64,000 nt of DNA from an uncultured Chloroflexia bacterium (GTDB taxonomy: Bacteria > Chloroflexota > Dehalococcoidia > SM23-28-2), in contig OY969584.1 of assembly GCA_963701285.1 (NCBI GenBank), forward strand, positions 1,979,877 through 2,043,876, in the 5' to 3' direction. This document shows positions 45,589 to 58,118 of this stretch, in pieces (position 1 is the first letter of the stretch; every line of letters begins with the position of its first letter). A program made the translations under genes and the position numbers. The notes beneath the pieces are model-generated. The model was not told the origin of the DNA. It searched no databases and saw only the letters and a list, made by a program, of their open reading frames with translations.

Positions 45589-45618
45589 TTGCCCCAGGGC
45601 AAAGGCGGGCGCTATAAT
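45589..45618 (+). promoter_or_regulatory. candidate promoter of the gtrA-GT2-ftsY-DUF2298 operon (TTGCCC-N18-TATAAT)
   Basis: TTGCCCcaggg at 45589; consensus TATAAT at 45613-45618. Architecture duplicated at 55676-55705. Confidence 0.4.
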
Positions 45619-45661: not shown

Positions 45662-46216
45662 ATGCGCAGACCTCGTTGCTTCTCGGAATCGCCCGTGGCT
45701 GTGAGCCCAGGGTATGGGCGGCTCGCTGCCTGGCGCGACCACGCCGCCGCCAGACTGGCGGCCTCCCCCACATTCGTCCGGTTCCTCATCGTTGGCGCCA
45801 TCGGCTACCTAGTCAACCAGTTCTTTCTCTACCTCCTCTACGATTCGCCCGCCTTCCCCGTTCTGCCCGCAAAGGACACCAGCGCGCGCATCCTCTTCTT
45901 CACCCACCCCGACGTCCGGCTGCTCATCGCCACCGTCGTGGCGGTGGAACTAGCCATCCTCTCCAACTTCCTCTGGCACAACCTCTGGACCTTCAGCGGT
46001 TACACCCGTCGCCTGCCTATGCTCCTGCGCTTCGTCGCCTTCAACGTCACCTCCATCGGCAGCCCCATCATCTCGGTCACCACCGTCAACGTCCTGACCC
46101 CCCGCTTCGGCGTCAACGTCTACGCCGCCAACTCCATCGGCATCGCGCTGGGCATGACCTGGAACTGGGTGTGGAACACCCAGCTCATCTGGCGCAAGGG
46201 TGGAGAGCCCATCTGA
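45662..46216 (+). CDS. GtrA-family membrane protein (polyprenyl-phosphate-sugar flippase family)
   Basis: FVRFLIVGAIGYLVNQFFLYLL ... ELAILSNFLWHNLWTF (GtrA hallmark). Start is either ATG 45617 or 45662. Confidence 0.7.
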   Translation: MRRPRCFSESPVAVSPGYGRLAAWRDHAAARLAASPTFVRFLIVGAIGYLVNQFFLYLLYDSPAFPVLPAKDTSARILFFTHPDVRLLIATVVAVELAILSNFLWHNLWTFSGYTRRLPMLLRFVAFNVTSIGSPIISVTTVNVLTPRFGVNVYAANSIGIALGMTWNWVWNTQLIWRKGGEPI

Positions 46217-46229
46217 CGCTCCCCCGCTC

Positions 46230-47000
46230 ATGACCAGCGAACCACGCCTCTCCCTGGTGATCCCCGCCTACAACGAGGCGCTTAACCTGCGACGCGGCAT
46301 CCTCCAGCAGGTGGCCGACTACCTGGCGAGCCGCTCCTACGCCTGCGAGGCGCTGGTGGTGGACGACGGCAGCACAGACGAGACGGCATCGCTGGCGGAG
46401 GCGTTCGCCCAGGAGCACCCATGCTTCAGCCTGCTACGCGAGCGTCATCGGGGAAAGGCCATGGCGGTGCGCGCTGGCGTGCTCGCCGCCCGTGGCCGCT
46501 ACGTCCTCTTCGCCGACCTGGACCTTTCGACGCCCCTTTCCTACATCCACCCCTTCGTGGAGCTGCTGGACGGCGGCTGGGACATCGTCATCGCCTCCCG
46601 CGAGGCGAAGGGCGGCGCCCGCCTGGGGGCGCCTGTCCAGCGGCGCGCTATGGGCAGGGTGTTCAGCCTGCTGGTGCGCCTGCTCCTGCTCCCCGGCATC
46701 TACGATAGCCAGTGCGGGTTCAAGGGCTTCCGCCGCGAGGTGGCCCACGACCTCTTCCGCAGCCTGCGCCTGTTCCGGGGCGAGGCGAGCGAGGTGAGCG
46801 GGCCGCGAGTCACCGCCTTCGACGTGGAGCTCCTCCTCCTGGCCCGCAAGAAGGGCTACACCATCCGCGAGGTGCCAGTGCTCTGGCGTCACGTCGAGAC
46901 CAAACGGGTGAACCCTGTGCTGGACTCCTATCGTATGCTCCGCGAGGTGCTCATCGTCTGGTGGAACGACCGCCGCGGCCTATACGGCCGGCCGCGGTGA
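46230..47000 (+). CDS. GT2-family glycosyltransferase (polyprenyl-phosphate sugar synthase, GtrB/DPM1-like)
   Basis: LSLVIPAYNEALNL..VVDDGSTDETA..VLFADLDLSTP (DxD), with C-terminal amphipathic/TM segments. Start is ATG 46230 or GTG 46200. Confidence 0.8.
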   Translation: MTSEPRLSLVIPAYNEALNLRRGILQQVADYLASRSYACEALVVDDGSTDETASLAEAFAQEHPCFSLLRERHRGKAMAVRAGVLAARGRYVLFADLDLSTPLSYIHPFVELLDGGWDIVIASREAKGGARLGAPVQRRAMGRVFSLLVRLLLLPGIYDSQCGFKGFRREVAHDLFRSLRLFRGEASEVSGPRVTAFDVELLLLARKKGYTIREVPVLWRHVETKRVNPVLDSYRMLREVLIVWWNDRRGLYGRPR

Positions 47001-48056: not shown

Positions 48057-50747
48057 ATGAGAGAAACGATCATCTGGTGGTCGGCCATTCAGGTTGTGGG
48101 GCTTGTCGCCTTCCCGATGACCTTCGCCTTCTTCCAGCGCCTGCCGGACCGCGGCTACGCCTTTGCCAAGCCCCTGGGCCTGGTCTTCCTGGGCTACATC
48201 CTCTGGATGGGGGCCACCATCGGCCTGTTCCCCAACGGGCGCGGTGCCGTCATCCTCATCCTGGTCGTCCTGGCCATCGTGTCGCTCATTGTGGCCAGCC
48301 GCCGCTGGCGGGAGATGGGCGATTTCCTGGCCCGCAACTGGACCTACGTCCTCTTCGTCGAGGTGCTGTTTGCGGTTGCCCTTGTCGTCGCCGCCTACCT
48401 CCGCTCCTACGTCTCCGAGATCGCCTGGACGGAGAAGCCCATGGACCTGGCCTTCCTGAACGCCGTCGTGCGCGGCGACAAGTTCCCTGTCCAGGACCCC
48501 TGGCTGGCCGGCCATTCCGTCCCCCTCTACTACTTTGGCCACGTGATGATCGGTGCCCTAACCTTGCTCACCGGTCTGCGTACCGGCGTCACCTTCAACC
48601 TCGGTCTGGCCCTCATCGGCGCCCTCGCTGCCATCGCCATCTTCGGCCTCGTGTACAACCTGCTCATCGGGCGCGGGCGGCCGCGGGCGGCCTTAGTCTT
48701 CGGTATGGTAGCGGTGGGCCTGCTGCTGGTCCTGTCCAACATGGAGGGCCTCTTCGAGCTGTTGGCCCGCCACGGCGTGGGAAACGCCCGCTTCTACTCA
48801 CTGGTCGGCATCGACGGCCTGAACGGCCCCACCGACTGCAAGACGAATGCCGGCGATTGCACAGACTGGTATCCTACCGCCTGGTGGTTCTGGTGGCGGG
48901 CGACCCGCATCGCCACCCAGTGGGACTGGCGAGAGTTCCCCTTCTTCACCTTCCTCCTGGGGGACCTCCACGCTCATCTGATGTCGATACCGTTCGTGCT
49001 GATGGCCTTGGGCATTGCCCTGAACACCCTGCGCTGGCAGGGGCCGCTGGTAGGCGGGCTATGGCCAGGCGTCGCCTCGTCGCTGAATCGCCTGCGGGAC
49101 AGCTTCCAGGGCCGGTTGCCCGGCACGACGGCCCTTTCGTCGGTGACGCCGATCCCGCCCGGGGCCTATCCCGTCGCTGCGGAGCGCAGTCTGGGCGTCT
49201 TAGCCTCGGCCTGGGAGGGCCTTACTTTCTGGATCGCCTGTCCGGCCCGCTTCCTGGCCATGTCGGTGCTGCTGGGCTCCCTGGGCTTCATCAACTCCTG
49301 GGACCTGCCGACCTTTCTGGGCTTGGTCGCCTTCATGGCCGGCGTCCGCAACTATCTTGTCGAAGGCCGCCTGACCGCAAGCGTCGTCGGCCGGACGCTG
49401 GGCTTCACCGTGCCCCTAGCGGTCCTGTCCTTCGTCCTGTACCTGCCGTTCTACCTGAACTTCCACCCCGTGGGCGGCGCCATCTTGCCCATCCAGCTCG
49501 CCACCATCAAGGGCTGGCCTCCGATAGAGACGATGGCCACGCGGCCCCATCACTTCGCCTACCTGTGGGCCACCATTCTCTGGCCTACCGTGACCTTCGC
49601 CGTTGCCGCGCTGGGGCCTTGGAAGCTGAACCGCTCCATCCTGCGCTGGGCGCTGCTGCCCGCCTTCGTGCCGTTCCTTGCCTGGCTATTCCTGGTCACC
49701 GCCCACCAGGGGCCGCTGGGCCTCATCGACGAGATCCGGATCCGTGGTGTCTGGTGGGTTACCTTGATCTTCCTGCTGGTGACGGTGACCGTGCCCGCCC
49801 TCGCCTTCGGCCGCTATCTGCTAAGGGCCAGGGACAAGGAGAACGGGGAGCGCGAAGACGACGAGAACCTGGCCTTCGTCCTCGCCTTGGGCGGAGTGGC
49901 CATCCTCATCCTGCTGGGCACCGAGCTGTATTGGGTAGAGGACCCGGTGGGTGTGCGCTCCAACACCGTCTTCCGCCTGAACTACCAATCGTGGATCATC
50001 CTCGCCGTCAGCGGCGCCGTGGGCCTGTACTACATCACCTCGCGCTGGCGGCTCAGCACCGTCCTGACCTCGGTCCCGCGCCTGCTGTGGGTGGGTGGCA
50101 CGATTTTCTTCTTCGGCGCCGGCCTGGTCTACCCGGTCATCGCCAGCATGAACCGCACCGTCGGCTTCACCACCCACCCCTACCTCGACGGCCTGGCCGC
50201 CATGCAGGCTGGCAACCCGTCCGAGTTTGAGGCCGTGCGCTGGCTGCAGGACAACGTCAAGGGAACACCGATCATTCTGGAGGCCGTGGGCGGAGACTAC
50301 AGCTCCGCCGGCCACGGCCGCATCTCGTCCCGCACCGGCCTGCCTACTCTGCTGGGCTGGCCTGACCACGAGTACCGCTGGCGCAACTCGTGGGAGGTGC
50401 AGGGCACCAAGATGCCGGATCGCGCCGAAGGAAACGGCGCCCCGGCGGGGTCCTGCCACGACGGTCTCGACAACGACGGCGACGGCACCATCGACGCCCA
50501 GGACACCGACTGCCGTATCGACCTAGACGTGAAGGAGGCCTACCAGACAACCAGCCCGGAGCGGGCTCGCACGATCCTGGAGACGTACGGCGTCCAGTAC
50601 GTCTACGTTGGATCGCTGGAGCGCGAGACCTACGGCGAGGACGGGATGAGCAAGTTCGCCTCCTTCATGGAGGTGGCCTTCCAGAATAGCGGCGTCACCA
50701 TCTACAGCATGCCTGGCACGGGGCAGATCTCCGTGCGCGCGCCCTGA
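48057..50747 (+). CDS. chlor_Arch_YYY / DUF2298 family membrane protein, paralog 4 (896 aa) with EF-hand/dockerin-like Ca loop insert
   Basis: Motif set FQRLPDRGYAF, EKPMDLAFLNAVVRGDKFPVQDPWLAGHSVPLYYFGH, GDLHAH, LPFYLNFHP, GVTIYSM, plus insert CHDGLDNDGDGTIDAQDTDC. Confidence 0.85.
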   Translation: MRETIIWWSAIQVVGLVAFPMTFAFFQRLPDRGYAFAKPLGLVFLGYILWMGATIGLFPNGRGAVILILVVLAIVSLIVASRRWREMGDFLARNWTYVLFVEVLFAVALVVAAYLRSYVSEIAWTEKPMDLAFLNAVVRGDKFPVQDPWLAGHSVPLYYFGHVMIGALTLLTGLRTGVTFNLGLALIGALAAIAIFGLVYNLLIGRGRPRAALVFGMVAVGLLLVLSNMEGLFELLARHGVGNARFYSLVGIDGLNGPTDCKTNAGDCTDWYPTAWWFWWRATRIATQWDWREFPFFTFLLGDLHAHLMSIPFVLMALGIALNTLRWQGPLVGGLWPGVASSLNRLRDSFQGRLPGTTALSSVTPIPPGAYPVAAERSLGVLASAWEGLTFWIACPARFLAMSVLLGSLGFINSWDLPTFLGLVAFMAGVRNYLVEGRLTASVVGRTLGFTVPLAVLSFVLYLPFYLNFHPVGGAILPIQLATIKGWPPIETMATRPHHFAYLWATILWPTVTFAVAALGPWKLNRSILRWALLPAFVPFLAWLFLVTAHQGPLGLIDEIRIRGVWWVTLIFLLVTVTVPALAFGRYLLRARDKENGEREDDENLAFVLALGGVAILILLGTELYWVEDPVGVRSNTVFRLNYQSWIILAVSGAVGLYYITSRWRLSTVLTSVPRLLWVGGTIFFFGAGLVYPVIASMNRTVGFTTHPYLDGLAAMQAGNPSEFEAVRWLQDNVKGTPIILEAVGGDYSSAGHGRISSRTGLPTLLGWPDHEYRWRNSWEVQGTKMPDRAEGNGAPAGSCHDGLDNDGDGTIDAQDTDCRIDLDVKEAYQTTSPERARTILETYGVQYVYVGSLERETYGEDGMSKFASFMEVAFQNSGVTIYSMPGTGQISVRAP

Positions 50748-50756
50748 GTCCACGCC

Positions 50757-52502
50757 ATGTCAGCCATCATCGACCCGCAAGGAGCAGCCTTCGTTCCGCC
50801 CACGCCGGCAGCGGCGGCGGCCGTCGCGCCGGCCAGGGTGGTGGGCCTCTCGATGAGCCTGGAGACCGTGGTCTGGGTGACCCTCATCGGCGTAGCCGCC
50901 GCCTTCCGCCTGGCGCGCCTCGACCACCTCCCCCTGACCGTGAACGAGTCGGCGCGGGCCCTGGCCTCCTGGCAGACGTCCCAGGGGCACGTCCCCGCCG
51001 ACTGGAGCGGCGACATGAGCCAGGCCATGACCTCCTACCTGTTCGCCATCTTCGGCGCTGGCGACCTGCTGGCCCGCCTGTTGCCCGCCCTTCTGGGCTG
51101 CCTGACAGTGGCCCTGCTCTGGCCTCTAGCCCGCTACGTGGGCGCTTCCGCCTTGCTGGCCGCTGTCCTGGTCGCCCTCTCGCCGCTGCTGGTGCACGTC
51201 TCACGCAGCGGCCTGCCCTACGCCGCCGGCGCCGCTCTATCGCTGGCCATGGTGGTGGCGTTCTTCGCCTTTGTCAGGACACGTTCGCCCGTCAGCCTGC
51301 TCGCCCTGGGCCTGGCCGCCGGCCTCGCCTTAGGCAGCGACGCCGTATCCACGTCAACCGCGATGCTCCTGCTGGCCTTCCTGGTGCTGGAGGCTACTGT
51401 GATCCGGTCGCCGGACATCGGCGAGAGGCTGGCCGAGGTGCGGCGGAGCCCCGCCCTCGGCGTCAGCGTTCTGTTGATCTTCCTGGGTTCCCTGGAGCTG
51501 GCGGTGACCCGCTTCGGCACCGATATCGACCGCGTGAGCCTGCCGGCGCTGCGCCTGTGGACGGGCATGTTCGACCTGCCCCGCGATAGCTTGCCCTGGC
51601 ACTTCCATCCCAACCTGCTCGTCGGGTACGAGGCGCCCGCCCTCATCCTGGGGACGGTTGGCTATCTGTGGGTCCTCTATCGGTGGCTGAAGACCAAGGG
51701 CGAGAGCATCCCCCTCTTCCAGCGCTTCCTCATCGTCTGGGCCAGCGGCGCGGCGTTGATCATCGCCGTCACTACCCGCCGCGAGGCGGGCCAGCTCGTC
51801 CTGTTGCTCCTACCGCTGGCCCTGCTGGCTGGCTGCTGGCTGGAGACCCTGGTGGCCGAGCTGAACCTTGCCTCGCTGGTGCGGTCGCTGCCGTTCCTCG
51901 TTCCCGGCCTGTTCGCGGTGGGCTACATCGCCCTGGAGCTCACCGAATGGTCGCGCAACCACGATGTCAATGAGACCGCGCTGGTCCTGGTGGCCGGCGG
52001 CGGCGTTGCCCTGCTGTGGCTTGCCTGGAACGTCTTGGGGCGCCAGGCGATCACCGGCTATTTCGTCCTAGGCTCTCTCGTCTCCCTAGTGTTCCTCGTC
52101 CACGGCGCCACGTCCGTCGCTTACGGACGGGGGAGCGAGCCCCTGGCCGACCAGCGCCTGGACCGCCAGGTTCCACGCCTGGAGAGCCAGCTGGCCGGCA
52201 TGGGCGGCGAGGAGGGGGCCATCGGCGCCGATATGTCCTTCATGAGGCCGCTGGGTTGGTACCTGCGCGACGTGCCCGGCCTGGTGTTCACGTATTCACC
52301 CCCGGCAAACGCCGTCGCCTACCTAGCCGTGCCGGGGACGACGGTACCCATTGGCTACGGCCTAGAGCGGACGTGGCCCATAGCCGAAGGGTGGGTGCCC
52401 AGCAGCATCGACCCGCTGAGCTGGTGGCGATGGCTGGTTTACCGAGAGCCCTACGGTGGTCTAACATCAACTGAGGCGGACTTACTGGTGAAAGCACCAT
52501 GA
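50757..52502 (+). CDS. polytopic membrane protein, divergent PMT/ArnT-like (TIGR03663-like) putative glycosyltransferase
   Basis: 581 aa, about 12 TM helices; N-terminal loop LDHLPLTVNESARALASW aligns with the DES..HGP loop of the next gene. Start uncertain. Confidence 0.55.
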   Translation: MSAIIDPQGAAFVPPTPAAAAAVAPARVVGLSMSLETVVWVTLIGVAAAFRLARLDHLPLTVNESARALASWQTSQGHVPADWSGDMSQAMTSYLFAIFGAGDLLARLLPALLGCLTVALLWPLARYVGASALLAAVLVALSPLLVHVSRSGLPYAAGAALSLAMVVAFFAFVRTRSPVSLLALGLAAGLALGSDAVSTSTAMLLLAFLVLEATVIRSPDIGERLAEVRRSPALGVSVLLIFLGSLELAVTRFGTDIDRVSLPALRLWTGMFDLPRDSLPWHFHPNLLVGYEAPALILGTVGYLWVLYRWLKTKGESIPLFQRFLIVWASGAALIIAVTTRREAGQLVLLLLPLALLAGCWLETLVAELNLASLVRSLPFLVPGLFAVGYIALELTEWSRNHDVNETALVLVAGGGVALLWLAWNVLGRQAITGYFVLGSLVSLVFLVHGATSVAYGRGSEPLADQRLDRQVPRLESQLAGMGGEEGAIGADMSFMRPLGWYLRDVPGLVFTYSPPANAVAYLAVPGTTVPIGYGLERTWPIAEGWVPSSIDPLSWWRWLVYREPYGGLTSTEADLLVKAP

Positions 52503-55500
52503 CCGAGGTGACGACGGCCGTACCGACCCCTGAGACGAGCCCCCTGGCGCGTCTGGCAGCCTTTCGCCTGCGCTTGGACTGGGAGCTTGCCTTCTACCTG
52601 CTCCTGATCGCCGGCGGCGGGGCGCTGCGCTTCTGGGACCTGGGCGCCCGCGCCTTCCACCACGACGAGAGCCTCCATGCCACCTACAGCTGGTACCTCT
52701 TCAACGGCAGCGGCTACGAGCACATGCCCATGATGCACGGCCCCTTCCAGTTCTTCGGCCGCGCTTTCTTCTTCGTCCTCTTCGGCGTCAGCAACTATTC
52801 GGCGCGCATCCTGGATGGCTTCTCCGGCACGGTACTCATCGCTATGCCCGTCTTGTTCCGCAACCGCCTGGGGCGGATGGGGGCGCTGGCGGCGGCGGCC
52901 TTCATTGCCCTATCGCCAACGCTGCTGTACTACAGCCGCTTCGCCCGCGAAGACATTCACATGGCCGTCTGGACACTGGGGCTGGTTATCTGCCTCTGGC
53001 GCTACGTGGATGGGGGACGCCATCGCTGGCTGTACCTTGGGGCCGCCTTCCTGGCCCTGAGTTTCGCCACCAAGGAATCCACGTACCTCAACGTCGCCAT
53101 CATCCTCATCTTCCTGAACCTGTGGCTGGCCCAGAGTCTGACGGCGCGTGCCCGCCAGCTGAACAACCTCGACTCGTTCTCTGCCGTCTGCCTGTTCATT
53201 CTGCTGGTGCCGTTCGCCTGGCTGATCGTTGCCCTGAGGCCGTTCCTGAACGATAGCTGGCGCAAGTCCCTGGGTGCCGACCAGGTGCCTCGCCAGGCCG
53301 ACTTCCTCATCCTCCTGGGAGCGTTATCGGCACCCCAGTTGGCGGCCATTGTCCAGAAACCCTTCGAATGGTTCCTGGGCTGGACGCACGCCGATTTCGC
53401 CCGCCACCTGCTCACCCTCAACCTCGGCCTCCTCGGCGGCCGCCACGACGTCAGCAACGTGCAGTTCATCGGCTTCTTCACCGTGGCTAGCCTTATCGCC
53501 GGCACCATGGTCGTCGGCTTGCGCTGGAACCTGCGCTCGTGGCTCATCGCGGCGGGCATCTTCTACGTCATCTACGGCCTGCTGTACACGACCTTCCTCA
53601 CCAACCCCACTGGTTTCGGTTCGGGCATCTGGGGCTCCCTGGACTACTGGCTCCAGCAGCAGAGCGTGCAGCGGGGCGGCCAGCCCTTCTACTACTACCT
53701 CCTGCTCCTGCCCATCTACGAGTTCCTGCCCCTGGTCATCGCTTTGCCTGCCGTGGCCTATCAGTTCATCCGCGGCAACGCCTTCGGCCGCTTCCTGGCC
53801 TTCTGGCTGGTGGGCGCCCTCTTGGCCTATTCCTACGCCGGCGAGAAGATGCCCTGGCTCAATGTGCACCTGGCCCTGCCGACGATAATCCTGGCGGCCT
53901 ACACGCTGAATCAGATGTGGACGGCGACCCACCATCGCGACTGGCGCTTCCGCCTCCCATCTGCCGCCTGGCCGGCGGCAGCGGCAGCGCTGGGGGGGGG
54001 AGCGATGGCTTTCGGCGTGTTCGGCCCCAGCGACCCCGCGACCGGCATTCTCGTGGGCCTGGCGGCAGTCCTGGCCATCGCCGCCCTGACGGTCTCGCTG
54101 CGCGGCCGCACCATGGCGGTGATGCCGGTAGCGGCGGTAATGGGCCCGCTGATGGTGTTCAGCGTGCGAGTGGCTTGGATGGCCAGCTTCGCCAGCGGCA
54201 ACGGCGCTGACGCGCGCGAGATGCTGGTCTACACTCAGTCCACGCCCGACATCCCCCAGGTGATGCGCCAGATCGACGAGTGGGCCGCCCAGACCGGGCT
54301 CGGCCACGACCTGCCCATCGATGTGGACGGCACCGACGCCTTCACCTGGCCCTGGGCCTGGTACCTCCGCGACTACCACAAGGTCCAGTACCCCAGCATG
54401 AACGAGAACTATCAGCCGCAACCCGATGCGAACGGCAATTATCCGGTGGTGCTGGTGAACGCCGGCAACGATAGCAAGGTCCAGCCCAAGCTGACCGCCT
54501 ACAACGAGGGCGAGCCTTATCACCACCGCTGGTGGTTCCCCGAGATCTACCGCAACATCGAGCTCGACAAGAACGGTCAGACGAAGCCTGTGCTCACCAC
54601 CTTCCGCGATTTCCTGGCCAGCATGGGGAACGGCGACACCTGGCAAACCTGGTGGCACTACTGGCGCGACCGTCAGCTACCGGAGGGCAAGGGCTCGGTG
54701 GACGCTGTGGCCTACTTCCCGCGCGACTACAAGCCGTCGGGCGGGCCGGTGATCAGCCAGCCCCTGCAGCCGCCCAAGGCTGAGGACGGCGGCCGCCTCA
54801 CCATCGGCGGCTACGGCGCCGCTGAGGGCCTGTTCATTAAGCCGGCCGGCCTGGCGGTGGACCAGCAGGGCAACCTCTACGTAGCCGACAGTGGCAACAA
54901 TCGCATTCAGAAGTTCGACCCGACCGGCCTTTTCCTGGCCCAGGTGGGCAGCGCCGGCACGGGCAACGGCCAGTTCAGCCAGCCCTGGGGTGTCGCCGTC
55001 GACGCCCAGGGCAACGTTTTCGTCGCCGACACCTGGAACCATCGAGTCCAGAAGTTCAACCAGGACCTCCAGTACGTGACCCAGTGGGGCAAACCGGCCT
55101 CGGACCTGAAGAACCCCAAGAACGATGAGTTCTGGGGCCCGCGCGACCTGACGGTGGATGCTGAGGGCAACGTGTGGGTGGCCGATACCGGCACCAGTCG
55201 CATCCTGAAGTTCGATGCGAATGGCACCTACCTGGCAACGCTGGGCGGACCTGGCTCCGAGGCGGGCAAACTGAGCGAGCCCGTGGGCGTCGAGATCGCC
55301 GCCAACGGCGACGTCTACGTCGCCGACGCCTGGAATGCCCGCATCCAGACATTCGACAAGGACCTGAAGCAACTGGCGACCTTCCCGGCACCCGGCTGGC
55401 TGGCCAATGACCCCCTCACCGAGCCGTACCTGGCCCTTCTGCCCGATGGCGGCATTGTCGCCAGTGATCCCGCCCACGACCGGGTCGTGCGCTTCCAGCC

Positions 55501-55657
55501 CGATGGCAATGTCGCCGCCATCTACGGGGGCCCCGGCGGGACCGGTGTGGCCGGCCCCAGCGGCCTGGCCGTCTCCGGCGACTTTCTGTTCATCTCCAGC
55601 AACGCCACCAACATCGTGCGGCGTATCCCGCTGAGCGACCTGGCGACGACGCCCTAG
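52499..55657 (+). CDS. TIGR03663-like / PMT_2-like membrane glycosyltransferase fused to C-terminal NHL-repeat beta-propeller (1052 aa)
   Basis: N-terminal FHHDESLHATYSW...MMHGPFQFF (DE and HGP motifs). Residues ~770-1052 hold six NHL repeats (NLYVADSGNNRIQKFD, NVFVADTWNHRVQKFN, NVWVADTGTSRILKFD, DVYVADAWNARIQTFD...). Confidence 0.75.
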   Translation: MTEVTTAVPTPETSPLARLAAFRLRLDWELAFYLLLIAGGGALRFWDLGARAFHHDESLHATYSWYLFNGSGYEHMPMMHGPFQFFGRAFFFVLFGVSNYSARILDGFSGTVLIAMPVLFRNRLGRMGALAAAAFIALSPTLLYYSRFAREDIHMAVWTLGLVICLWRYVDGGRHRWLYLGAAFLALSFATKESTYLNVAIILIFLNLWLAQSLTARARQLNNLDSFSAVCLFILLVPFAWLIVALRPFLNDSWRKSLGADQVPRQADFLILLGALSAPQLAAIVQKPFEWFLGWTHADFARHLLTLNLGLLGGRHDVSNVQFIGFFTVASLIAGTMVVGLRWNLRSWLIAAGIFYVIYGLLYTTFLTNPTGFGSGIWGSLDYWLQQQSVQRGGQPFYYYLLLLPIYEFLPLVIALPAVAYQFIRGNAFGRFLAFWLVGALLAYSYAGEKMPWLNVHLALPTIILAAYTLNQMWTATHHRDWRFRLPSAAWPAAAAALGGGAMAFGVFGPSDPATGILVGLAAVLAIAALTVSLRGRTMAVMPVAAVMGPLMVFSVRVAWMASFASGNGADAREMLVYTQSTPDIPQVMRQIDEWAAQTGLGHDLPIDVDGTDAFTWPWAWYLRDYHKVQYPSMNENYQPQPDANGNYPVVLVNAGNDSKVQPKLTAYNEGEPYHHRWWFPEIYRNIELDKNGQTKPVLTTFRDFLASMGNGDTWQTWWHYWRDRQLPEGKGSVDAVAYFPRDYKPSGGPVISQPLQPPKAEDGGRLTIGGYGAAEGLFIKPAGLAVDQQGNLYVADSGNNRIQKFDPTGLFLAQVGSAGTGNGQFSQPWGVAVDAQGNVFVADTWNHRVQKFNQDLQYVTQWGKPASDLKNPKNDEFWGPRDLTVDAEGNVWVADTGTSRILKFDANGTYLATLGGPGSEAGKLSEPVGVEIAANGDVYVADAWNARIQTFDKDLKQLATFPAPGWLANDPLTEPYLALLPDGGIVASDPAHDRVVRFQPDGNVAAIYGGPGGTGVAGPSGLAVSGDFLFISSNATNIVRRIPLSDLATTP

Positions 55658-55675: not shown

Positions 55676-55705
55676 TTGCCCAGGGGAGTTGTCGCAGCCT
55701 ATAAT
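55676..55705 (+). promoter_or_regulatory. candidate promoter of the flippase-like/FAD-oxidoreductase operon (TTGCCC-N18-TATAAT)
   Basis: gcgcgTTGCCCaggggagttgtcgcagccTATAATtgg; same -35, spacer length and -10 as the promoter at 45589. Confidence 0.4.
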
Positions 55706-55749: not shown

Positions 55750-56772
55750 TTGCTGCGTAGCCGCCAACTCTGGCTCGGGATAATGGGGACGGCCCTGTTC
55801 CTGGGCCTCTTTTTCTGGCGCACCGACCTGGGCGACATGGCCGACGCCCTGGCCGACGCCAACTACTGGTGGTTCGCCCCCGCCGTCGCCCTCTGGTTTG
55901 TCTCCGCCTGGTTCCGCTCGGTGCGCTGGCGCTACCTGCTGCGGCCCATCGCCGACCTTCCCGCGCGGACGCTGTATCCGGTGGTGATTATCGGCTACAT
56001 GGCCAACAACCTTCTGCCTGCACGGACAGGCGAGCTGGTGCGAGCCTACGTCATGGGCGAACGCCACCGCGTGAGCCTGATGGGCACCCTGGGCACCATC
56101 GCCGTGGAACGCCTCTTCGATGGGCTGGTGCTGCTGGCGTTCCTGGTGCTGGTGGGCGCTTTTGTCGGCCTCAGCCGGGAGCTGACCGTCCTGGCCATCG
56201 CCATGTCCGTCATTTTCGCAGCCGTATTCGCCGTCTTCCTCTACGTTGCTTCGTCCGCCGAGCGGGCGCAGCGGGTCATCGGTGCGCTGGTGCGCCTGCT
56301 GCCCGCCCGTGCCCGCGAGCGGGCTCGCGGCTGGGCGGGCGGCTTCGTGGCCGGGCTCGAGGCTCTGCGCAGCCCCGCTGCCCTGACCGCCGTGGTGCTC
56401 ACCTCAACGGTGGCTTGGGCGCTGGAAGGCACCATGTACTTTATGGTGGGCGTCGCATTCAACCTGGGCGAGGCCTTCCCCATCTATCTGATGGTTGCCG
56501 CCGCGGCCAACCTGGCGATAACTCTGCCCTCCACCTCTGGCGGCATCGGCCCCTTCGAGGCGCTGGCCAAGGAGACGCTGGTATTCGTGGGCGTGGGCAC
56601 GTCGGCGGCAGCCGCCTATGCGGTGGCCCTCCACGCACTGCTACTCCTGCCGGTGGTGGCGGTCGGGCTCATCTTCCTCTGGATGATCAACCTATCCCTG
56701 GGCGAGGCGCTGCGCCGCCCGGCCCGCCCCGCTCTGGCCGCCAGCGTCAGCCAGGGGGAGGTCAGCGAGTGA
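55750..56772 (+). CDS. flippase-like (UPF0104 / lysyl-PG synthase TM-region family) membrane protein
   Basis: 8 TM helices; YPVVIIGYMANNLLPARTGELVRAYV is characteristic of pfam03706. TTG at 55750 has AGGAAG 8 nt upstream; alternatives are ATG 55783 and TTG 55705. Confidence 0.65.
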   Translation: MLRSRQLWLGIMGTALFLGLFFWRTDLGDMADALADANYWWFAPAVALWFVSAWFRSVRWRYLLRPIADLPARTLYPVVIIGYMANNLLPARTGELVRAYVMGERHRVSLMGTLGTIAVERLFDGLVLLAFLVLVGAFVGLSRELTVLAIAMSVIFAAVFAVFLYVASSAERAQRVIGALVRLLPARARERARGWAGGFVAGLEALRSPAALTAVVLTSTVAWALEGTMYFMVGVAFNLGEAFPIYLMVAAAANLAITLPSTSGGIGPFEALAKETLVFVGVGTSAAAAYAVALHALLLLPVVAVGLIFLWMINLSLGEALRRPARPALAASVSQGEVSE

Positions 56773-58118
56773 AGGTCTGTGTCATCGGTGGCGGCGTCGG
56801 TGGCCTGACGGCCGCCTACCGCCTGTGCCAGCGCGGCTTCCAGGTACACCTGCTGGAGGCCAGTCCCAGCCTGGGCGGCCTGGTGGGCATTTTCGAGATC
56901 GGCGGGAGCCGCATCGAGCATTTCTACCACCATATCTTCTCCACCGACACCACCATCGCCTCCCTGATCGACGAGCTGGGCCTAGGCGATCGCCTTGTTT
57001 GGCGGGAGTCGAAGGTGGGCATCTTCTACGACGGACGCATCTACAACTTCGTGACGCCTATGGACCTGATGCGCTTCACGCCGCTGCCCCTGGCCGACCG
57101 GATTCGCCTGGGCCTCGTGGGCCTCTACCTGCGCCGGCAGAACGACTGGCGCCGCTACGAGGGGGTGACCGCCGCCGACTGGATCAGGCGCTACGCCGGC
57201 CGCCGCAACTACGAGGTGGTCTGGGGCCCGCTGCTGCGGGGCAAGTTCGGCCTGCGCGCGGACGACGTAAGCATGGCCTGGTTTTGGAGCAAGATCCACC
57301 TGCGCTTCGCCTCGCGCAAGGGCGGCCCGCTCCAGAAGGAGCACCTCGGCTATCTGCTGGGCAGCTTCGGCCTGCTGGTCGACGTGCTGGCTGAGCGCAT
57401 CCGCGAGCTGGGCGGGGTTCTGGAGACGAACCGGCCGGTGCAACGCGTGGTGGTGGAGGAGGGGCGAGCGGTTGCCCTCGAGGTCGGTGGCGACAGACCC
57501 AAGCGCCTCGATTGCGACGCCGCGATCGCCACGGTGCCCAGCGGGGCCTTCCTCAGCATCGTGCCGGGCCTGCCGGACGAGTACGCCGCCAAGCTGAGCG
57601 CCGTACAGTACCAGTGGGCGTTGTGCCTGGTGCTGGCCCTCAAACACTCGCTCTCGTCCATTTACTGGATGAACATGAGCGACAGCAGCGCCCCCTTCCT
57701 GGCCCTCATCGAGCACACCAACTTCATCGAGCGCGAGCGCTACGGCGGCCGCCACGTCGTCTATCTGTCCAACTACCTGGACGAGGCGTCGCCGCTGCTG
57801 AAGATGGACATGGAAGAGCTCTGCCAGCTCTTCTTCCCCCATCTCCAGCGCGTCAACCCCGCCTTCTCCCAGGACTGGGTGGCCGACCGCTGGCTCTTCT
57901 GCGGTCCCTACGCCCAGCCCATCATCGGTACCCACTACTCCCGCTCCATCCCCGAGCAGCGGACGCCCATTTCGGGGTTGTACCTGGCGAACATGACCCA
58001 GATCTACCCCGAGGACCGCGGCCAGAACTACAGCATCCGCCTGGGGGACCAGGTGGCAGCCCTGGTCGCCGAGGATCTCCAGCTTGGCCAAGAGAAGCCC
58101 GTCTCCAGGCCGGCCTAG
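56769..58118 (+). CDS. NAD(P)/FAD-dependent oxidoreductase (amine-oxidase / phytoene-desaturase fold)
   Basis: GTG start overlapping the upstream stop (GTGA), GGGGGAGG 10 nt upstream; VKVCVIGGGVGGLTAAYRLCQRGFQVHLLEASPSLGG dinucleotide motif. Track ORF 55869..58118 is an out-of-frame extension. Confidence 0.75.
   Translation: MKVCVIGGGVGGLTAAYRLCQRGFQVHLLEASPSLGGLVGIFEIGGSRIEHFYHHIFSTDTTIASLIDELGLGDRLVWRESKVGIFYDGRIYNFVTPMDLMRFTPLPLADRIRLGLVGLYLRRQNDWRRYEGVTAADWIRRYAGRRNYEVVWGPLLRGKFGLRADDVSMAWFWSKIHLRFASRKGGPLQKEHLGYLLGSFGLLVDVLAERIRELGGVLETNRPVQRVVVEEGRAVALEVGGDRPKRLDCDAAIATVPSGAFLSIVPGLPDEYAAKLSAVQYQWALCLVLALKHSLSSIYWMNMSDSSAPFLALIEHTNFIERERYGGRHVVYLSNYLDEASPLLKMDMEELCQLFFPHLQRVNPAFSQDWVADRWLFCGPYAQPIIGTHYSRSIPEQRTPISGLYLANMTQIYPEDRGQNYSIRLGDQVAALVAEDLQLGQEKPVSRPA

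Follow-up and report, generated by a model that had tools for sequence, protein, structure and literature searches.

The 64,000-nucleotide stretch analysed here (the window; contig OY969584.1, positions 1,979,877 to 2,043,876, of an uncultured Chloroflexia bacterium placed in the Dehalococcoidia by GTDB) carries a gene for a TIGR03663/Agl23-family protein that ends in an NHL beta-propeller. The product is a three-module envelope protein typical of Chloroflexota, in which a GT-C membrane domain is followed by an outside alpha/beta domain and an NHL propeller tethered by a linker. The explanation towards which we lean, at somewhat better than even chances, is that it acts as an enzyme of surface glycosylation working with lipid-linked sugars, whose tethered outside propeller binds the acceptor or a partner. 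The gene, a single open reading frame (ORF), and its parts are as follows, with model confidence given as the predicted local distance difference test (pLDDT).

52499..55657, forward strand: whole gene for the TIGR03663/Agl23-family protein with C-terminal NHL propeller; single ORF of 1052 amino acids, stop at 55655-55657.
52580..54187, forward strand: polytopic GT-C-fold membrane domain, residues 28-563, with 15 predicted transmembrane (TM) helices plus outside juxtamembrane helices.
52661..52672, forward strand: H55-D56-E57-S58 motif, opening the first outside loop and including a candidate catalytic acidic pair; all 81 aligned fusion proteins have it unchanged.
52736..52744, forward strand: H80-G81-P82 motif of the first outside loop; H80 and G81 invariant, P82 in at least 90%.
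54188..54733, forward strand: predicted extracytoplasmic alpha/beta domain, residues 564-745, common to NHL-less orthologues; alternating strands and helices in the model.
54734..54808, forward strand: Pro/Gly-rich linker, residues 746-770; pLDDT below 50 at residues 746-754.
54809..55654, forward strand: six-bladed NHL beta-propeller, residues 771-1052 (Pfam NHL, E 2e-39).
54809-54952, 54953-55096, 55097-55252, 55253-55393, 55394-55531 and 55532-55654, forward strand: propeller blades 1 to 6.

The gene is genuine, and its membrane part and propeller lie in one continuous ORF. An earlier note on this DNA had described the segment 54806-55657 as a propeller fused to the C-terminus of a candidate PMT-like membrane glycosyltransferase; that segment corresponds to the final 283 codons plus the stop, with 54806 at codon 770. 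The ORF check of the window detected no frame change or stop between the two parts, base composition is even across the region including their junction, and the start ATG and the stop codon of the preceding gene overlap (ATGA at 52499-52502, in the context ccATGAcc). A database entry with 100% identity to the protein is located on a 2.66-Mb contig. Among 5.8 billion proteins searched, 1979 matched, and architecture was taken from the best 120, nearly all of which are 980-1130 amino acids long and combine PMT_2 with NHL at 40-77% identity; they come from JGI, ENA, NCBI and Logan. The scan of GTDB with one genome per species yielded 584 relatives, from which 80 loci were kept, and NHL is encoded in the same ORF in 67 of them, in Dehalococcoidia, Anaerolineae, Chloroflexia and Thermoflexales. 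Because the fusion is conserved across genomes, a frameshift or mis-assembly is ruled out, and the single-gene fusion proposed earlier was upheld. The only point found in favour of an artefact (frameshift, mis-assembly or read-through linking two genes) is that the linker, where the join would fall, is low in complexity and poorly conserved, and its probability is negligible given the continuous ORF in these 67 independent Chloroflexota species genomes and in more than 100 metagenome-derived protein clusters from the four sources, together with the uninterrupted frame and uniform junction composition in the window.

The named close homologues belong to Chloroflexota or Dehalococcoidia and are labelled "TIGR03663 family protein" or "flippase activity-associated protein Agl23", and IMG labels such fusions 'predicted membrane-bound mannosyltransferase/DNA-binding beta-propeller fold protein YncE'. 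The remark in the earlier note that this architecture was unfamiliar for either domain family does not hold for the databases, where IMG already names it, and does hold for the literature searched, in which no description of the fusion or of bacterial TIGR03663 proteins was found. The fusion is common in Chloroflexota and annotated in databases, and the gene itself is no discovery.

Complete ORFs without NHL were found at 12 of the 80 loci (Dehalococcoidia), ending at residues 745-758 just after the alpha/beta domain, and one further locus is interrupted by a contig end. These orthologues align with the fusion protein up to residues 741-758 and all 12 share its ftsY-DUF2298-TIGR03663-TIGR00374-oxidoreductase neighbourhood; no separate NHL gene was present within 8 kb of the NHL-less TIGR03663 genes in the Dehalococcoidia loci. 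Since orthologues in the same neighbourhood occur with and without NHL, the core is orthologous and the propeller an accessory addition to it. Residues 1-764 were also searched exhaustively with HMMER against 1.84 billion representatives at 50% identity, which detected 4796 family members, 910 of them at E <= 1e-30. Among the best 150 representatives, 136 contain the membrane and alpha/beta domains, of which 51 carry the propeller and 85 end right after the alpha/beta domain; a different long tail, with no Pfam match, occurred in only two cases. In a neighbour-joining tree of the N-terminal domain, NHL-less proteins form two Dehalococcoidia groups beside fused ones, and a single gain of NHL followed by losses would fit this tree, as would repeated gains.

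Some relatives have additional domains. Three homologues at 73-79% identity (P0011, P0034 and P0037) show a precomputed DnaJ (PF00226) match besides TIGR03663/NHL, which could reflect a different gene start, a neighbour merged by the gene caller or a real N-terminal domain. In P0127, a protein of 1367 amino acids from a JGI metagenome whose cluster also has members of 1664-1672 amino acids, a PAP2_3 lipid-phosphate phosphatase is fused N-terminal to the TIGR03663-type membrane domain; this fusion would provide an independent link of the family to polyprenyl-phosphate chemistry.

The N-terminal part of the fusion protein matches TIGR03663 in NCBIfam at 257.6 bits against a cut-off of 126.25, which bears out the TIGR03663-like polytopic domain of the earlier note. 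This model, named 'flippase activity-associated protein Agl23' by NCBI, comprises 435 positions and covers the membrane part only. Pfam gave a PMT_2 (PF13231) match at residues 80-238 (34.9 bits, cut-off 26.1), and the scan detected no match to PF02366 (PMT) or MIR at E <= 0.01. A strict GT39 PMT identity was rejected on this ground, so that of the 'PMT-like membrane glycosyltransferase' the GT-C fold stands, the PMT identity falls and the transferase activity is putative. As a sequence search of the PDB with the membrane domain returned no match, the domain was compared by fold, and since a full-length Foldseek search returned NHL matches only, a separate model of residues 1-764 was made. Structural comparison of this model revealed the GT-C membrane fold, which is the fold of enzymes using polyprenyl-phosphate-linked sugars. 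Its structural matches include EmbA/B/C and AftD and also the non-catalytic GT-C-fold proteins PIGU and GAB1; all enzymes among the top matches are transferases, and known flippases are absent from them.

The DE..HGP loop motifs noticed earlier proved real, H55-D56-E57-S58 and H80-G81 being invariant in all 81 homologues, and in the model Asp56-Glu57 directly follows TM1, giving the conserved acidic first outside loop of GT-C proteins. Loop 1 of PMTs has Asp-Glu, and ArnT and PglB have a catalytic Asp; we infer that D56-E57 is the equivalent of the PMT 'DE' motif or the ArnT Asp. Further invariant residues of the 81-homologue alignment are R147, R150, D152, E193 and E449 in loops assigned to the outside, and E574, P618, W621, Y622, R624 and Y684, among others, in the alpha/beta domain. 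That domain resembles the periplasmic domain with which ArnT-type GT-C enzymes have been described (PMC8476585). Together, the GT-C fold, the invariant acidic pair, the charged residues of the outside loops and the ArnT-like alpha/beta domain point to an enzyme of lipid-linked sugars with its working face outside.

The AlphaFold2 model was built on the 81 homologues and reached a mean pLDDT of 86 with a predicted template modelling score (pTM) of 0.72 at full length, and a pTM of 0.86 for residues 1-764 alone. A crude hydropathy scan left the helix count ambiguous, so the helices of the model were combined with charges counted in the loops of the 81 sequences. With 15 helices, and with residues 265-293 as outside juxtamembrane helices, every short Arg/Lys-rich loop is cytoplasmic (mean K+R/D+E of 1.49/0.10, 1.69/0.07, 3.16/1.25 and 2.78/0.43). 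Short loops on the outer side are acidic or neutral in this arrangement, and the C-terminal part carries a net negative charge. A 16-helix topology with 265-293 as a TM helix was rejected, as all Arg-rich short loops would then fall outside. The 15-TM topology places outside the HDES and HGP motifs, R147/R150/D152, K192/E193, E449/K450, the alpha/beta domain and the propeller, and the C-terminal soluble domains are predicted to be extracytoplasmic. This agrees with the side proposed for the propeller in the earlier note: the 15-TM model obeys the positive-inside rule in the 81 sequences, and there is homology to ArnT, OST and PMT, whose structures have the same inside/outside arrangement.

The membrane domain can also be read as a lipid-linked sugar flippase or scramblase, or as a flippase accessory, as proposed for archaeal Agl23, with a propeller that would dock the consuming enzymes or the acceptors. 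The fusion protein passes the curated cut-off of NCBI's 'flippase activity-associated protein Agl23' model, and GT-C-fold proteins that only bind lipid exist, with PIGU and GAB1 among the structural matches. Moreover, purified Agl23 of Haloarcula hispanica (HhAgl23) moved M5GN2-PP-Dol across liposomes and rescued yeast rft1-delta (PMC11182771). We nevertheless consider this reading rather unlikely, in view of the transferases that make up all enzymes in the top structural matches, where known flippases are missing, and of invariant residues, both acidic and basic, whose placement in outside loops resembles that in the active sites of GT-C enzymes. A separate flippase-like TIGR00374 gene adjoins, an adjacency kept in Dehalococcoidia, and two outward soluble domains would be unexpected for a pure translocator. 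Transfer and flipping are not mutually exclusive and could coexist.

The propeller scores 132.1 bits with the NHL model (PF01436; cut-off 20), and four of its repeats are significant individually. The predicted structure has six blades of four strands each, 24 strands in all, to which residues 767-770 add a closing strand; pLDDT is mostly above 90. The motif D-x-x-[NTH]-x-R-[IV] is found in blades 1-5 and is degenerate in blade 6, and blades 5 and 6 are divergent in sequence; of the 'six canonical NHL repeats' described earlier, the six blades were retained, and only four are canonical by hidden Markov model, two being divergent. Foldseek placed the modelled propeller on the NHL domains of Thin, TRIM71, TRIM2/3 and Brat (E down to 3e-21, TM-score 0.86-0.89), a match of predicted structure that is far beyond chance, and the family sequence profile matches the NHL structures of TRIM71, Thin, Brat and PknD (1RWI, E 5e-33). 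Mean pairwise identity is 51% in the propeller, 52% in the membrane domain and 33% in the linker, and, judged by sequence, the propeller is under constraint. The low-confidence linker and the lower pTM of the full-length than of the N-terminal model suggest that it is flexibly tethered. The repeated structural NHL motif (D-x-x-N-x-R-I/V, G, P) accounts for most of the invariant propeller residues. The family-specific conserved residues outside that motif, P873, G880-P881-R882, W967, K975 and P976, cluster in the loops connecting blades 2-3 and blades 4-5, which by the usual convention would lie on the top face.

Binding modules on GT-C enzymes are usually related to the substrate, as in PMT-MIR, TMTC-TPR and Emb/AftD-CBM, and by analogy the propeller is plausibly an acceptor binder, as the earlier note suggested. 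It might instead be an extracellular ligand sensor or an envelope anchor of the PknD kind that regulates or localises the membrane enzyme. The profile match to the extracellular NHL domain of PknD would agree with this, as would the flexible, poorly conserved linker, which suits a tethered independent module, and the NHL-less orthologues that function without a propeller. However, neither the protein nor its neighbouring genes gave a signalling domain in the Pfam and NCBIfam scans, the propeller invariably occupies the terminus that shares a side with the loops of the putative active site, and the modules fused to GT-C proteins are, as said, usually substrate-related; a sensor or anchor is therefore unlikely. 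A propeller that is itself an enzyme of the lyase, lactonase or amidating-lyase type, processing the glycan or the acceptor, appears very improbable. Weak matches to an SGL/gluconolactonase region (E 8.5e-14), virginiamycin B lyase (below cut-off), ScyF and the PAL structure 3FVZ were obtained, but the family matches are partial or below cut-off (Vgb_lyase 23 against 50 bits, ScyF 174 against 350 bits), the best structural matches are non-enzymatic NHL domains of the TRIM type, and the mostly structural invariant residues displayed no obvious single catalytic constellation.

The genes near the fusion gene supply the pathway context, with a GT2, a DUF2298 protein, a second TIGR03663 paralogue and a flippase-like protein. 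The features of the neighbourhood are as follows.

46200..47000, forward strand: GT2 glycosyltransferase, candidate polyprenyl-phosphate sugar synthase (Glycos_transf_2, E 5e-26).
48057..50747, forward strand: DUF2298 / TIGR03662 (Chlor_Arch_YYY) polytopic membrane protein (Pfam E 1.5e-88; NCBIfam 433 bits).
50757..52502, forward strand: TIGR03663-like paralogue of 581 amino acids (PMT_2, E 6e-10; TIGR03663 74 bits, below cut-off).
55783..56772, forward strand: TIGR00374 / LPG_synthase_TM 'flippase-like' membrane protein (Pfam E 1.7e-43; NCBIfam 79.7 against 43.2 bits).
56769..58118, forward strand: oxidoreductase of the FAD (flavin adenine dinucleotide) amine-oxidase/phytoene-desaturase-like type (PRK07233; NF005560, 477 bits), with a GTGA overlap with the preceding gene.

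The order in the window is an unknown ORF of 237 amino acids, GT2, ftsY, DUF2298/TIGR03662, the 581-residue paralogue, the fusion gene, TIGR00374, the FAD oxidoreductase PRK07233, a 2H phosphoesterase and nuoE/F-like genes. Dehalococcoidia loci keep the series ftsY - DUF2298 - (paralogue) - TIGR03663 - TIGR00374 - oxidoreductase, with TIGR00374 immediately 3' of the TIGR03663 gene whether NHL is present or not. In many loci the DUF2298 gene immediately precedes the TIGR03663 gene, and in Anaerolineae the fusion gene usually occurs without the TIGR00374/oxidoreductase pair. For a Chloroflexi genome, a DUF2298 / PMT2-PA14 / PMT2 neighbourhood has been listed (PMC8756737), which was the sole related mention in the literature searched. 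Close to its C-terminus, residues 799-820 of the DUF2298 protein give a short match, below cut-off, to an 'acidic double-disulfide repeat' (CHDGLDNDGDGTIDAQDTDC).

Three genes lie between the GT2 and the fusion gene. The GT2 protein matches NF041391 (haloarchaeal dolichyl-phosphate hexose transferase) over positions 13-210 of 213 (E 3.9e-14, 52 bits against a cut-off of 375), and its resemblance to ArnC and PpgS is weak and below cut-offs; it could be a distant counterpart of Agl22, the partner of Agl23. The paralogue, found at the same position in the loci L001, L003, L005 and L006, is probably translationally coupled to the fusion gene, and by analogy with Pmt1-Pmt2 or EmbA-EmbB the two products could form a heterodimer. 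At residues ~61-63 it has Asn-Glu-Ser against Asp56-Glu57-Ser58 of the fusion protein, and HGP is absent. Its orthologues in those four loci retain Asp-Glu, which makes the Asp-to-Asn change peculiar to this genome; the change might have inactivated the paralogue. Locus L001 (JAIVWR010000082.1, 6 kb), from a metagenome-assembled genome labelled Acidobacteriota, shows the DUF2298 - paralogue - fusion order at 56-65% identity to the window; the tree groups it with Dehalococcoidia, and it is probably a mis-binned Chloroflexota contig.

The pair of TIGR00374 and PRK07233 is tightly conserved directly 3' of TIGR03663 in Dehalococcoidia (L003, L005, L009, L030, L050, L055 and others), and an oxidoreductase of this type beside lipid-sugar genes might modify the polyprenyl carrier. 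Four-base overlaps join TIGR00374 to the oxidoreductase (GTGA at 56769-56772) and the paralogue to the fusion gene (the ATGA), which suggests that translation is coupled inside each pair. Two identical promoter-like sites (TTGCCC, 18 nucleotides, TATAAT; 10 of 12 matches) were found at 45589-45618, upstream of GT2, and at 55676-55705, in the 47-bp gap after the stop of the fusion gene, where about one would be expected by chance across the whole 14.5 kb. The TIGR00374 ORF opens at 55705, and the second site led us to take ATG 55783 rather than TTG 55705 as its likely start; the TIGR00374 gene may be transcribed separately.

In the lipid-linked-sugar explanation, the cytoplasmic GT2 would load a sugar on polyprenyl phosphate, and the lipid-linked sugar would reach the outer leaflet via the TIGR00374 flippase-like neighbour or the TIGR03663 domain itself. 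The GT-C domain would then pass the sugar to a cell-surface acceptor, while the tethered propeller would keep a partner protein or the acceptor, be it a glycan or a surface protein, close to the active site. The following points weigh against this explanation. Agl23 of H. hispanica, the only characterised member of the family, is reported in PMC11182771 as a hexose-P-dolichol flippase candidate, which speaks for translocation rather than transfer. The NHL-less orthologues indicate that the core function can dispense with the propeller. Finally, ftsY separates the GT2 from the cassette, and the matches of the GT2 to polyprenyl-phosphate sugar synthases are all below cut-offs.

A more specific version, in which the propeller recognises the acceptor for a Chloroflexota machinery that glycosylates surface proteins and is related to the archaeal Agl23 step, is offered tentatively and stands well short of even chances. 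If true, the outside propeller would argue that the TIGR03663/Agl23 family consists of outer-face GT-C transferases and not, or not only, of flippases; the current annotation would be revised, and the place of Agl23 in the Rft1 flippase debate would be affected. The tension is that Agl23 is called a flippase, whereas the fold, the conserved outside-loop residues and the two outward soluble domains look transferase-like. GT-C enzymes often gain specificity from soluble add-ons, and an NHL propeller in that role is undescribed in the literature searched. Because the fusion is fixed in a large part of the phylum, it is probably the mark of a particular acceptor or partner within the Chloroflexota envelope, which is poorly understood, and the natural orthologue pairs with and without propeller in the same neighbourhood offer a ready comparison for the contribution of the module.

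Among known systems, the fusion protein shares the curated TIGR03663 family with Agl23 of Haloarcula hispanica. Both are polytopic and, as inferred for the fusion protein, would act on polyprenyl- or dolichyl-phosphate-linked sugars in surface glycosylation, and the fusion locus has a nearby GT2 weakly similar to the haloarchaeal dolichyl-phosphate hexose transferase; Agl23, however, is archaeal and is described as a flippase (Lu et al. 2020 Mol Microbiol, as cited in PMC11182771). With ArnT (GT83, PDB 5F15) sequence similarity was undetectable in the PDB search, and ArnT has 13 TM helices, no propeller and lipid A as acceptor, compared with 15 predicted TM helices and a propeller here. Pmt1/2/4 (GT39) and TMTC1-4 (GT105) differ in that the fusion protein is without PF02366 and MIR, and in that their accessory domain is inside a loop, whereas that of the fusion protein is the C-terminal NHL propeller. 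PknD of M. tuberculosis (1RWI) likewise tethers a bacterial six-bladed NHL propeller outside the membrane to a membrane-anchored enzyme, but it is a single-pass Ser/Thr kinase with a cytoplasmic catalytic domain, and the propeller of the fusion protein is predicted on the putative active-site side of a polytopic protein. The mycobacterial arabinosyltransferases EmbA/B/C and AftD are GT-C enzymes with a large C-terminal extracytoplasmic domain, carbohydrate-binding in Emb/AftD. The fusion follows the known principle of a GT-C protein with an extracytoplasmic accessory domain, and the NHL propeller is the variant.

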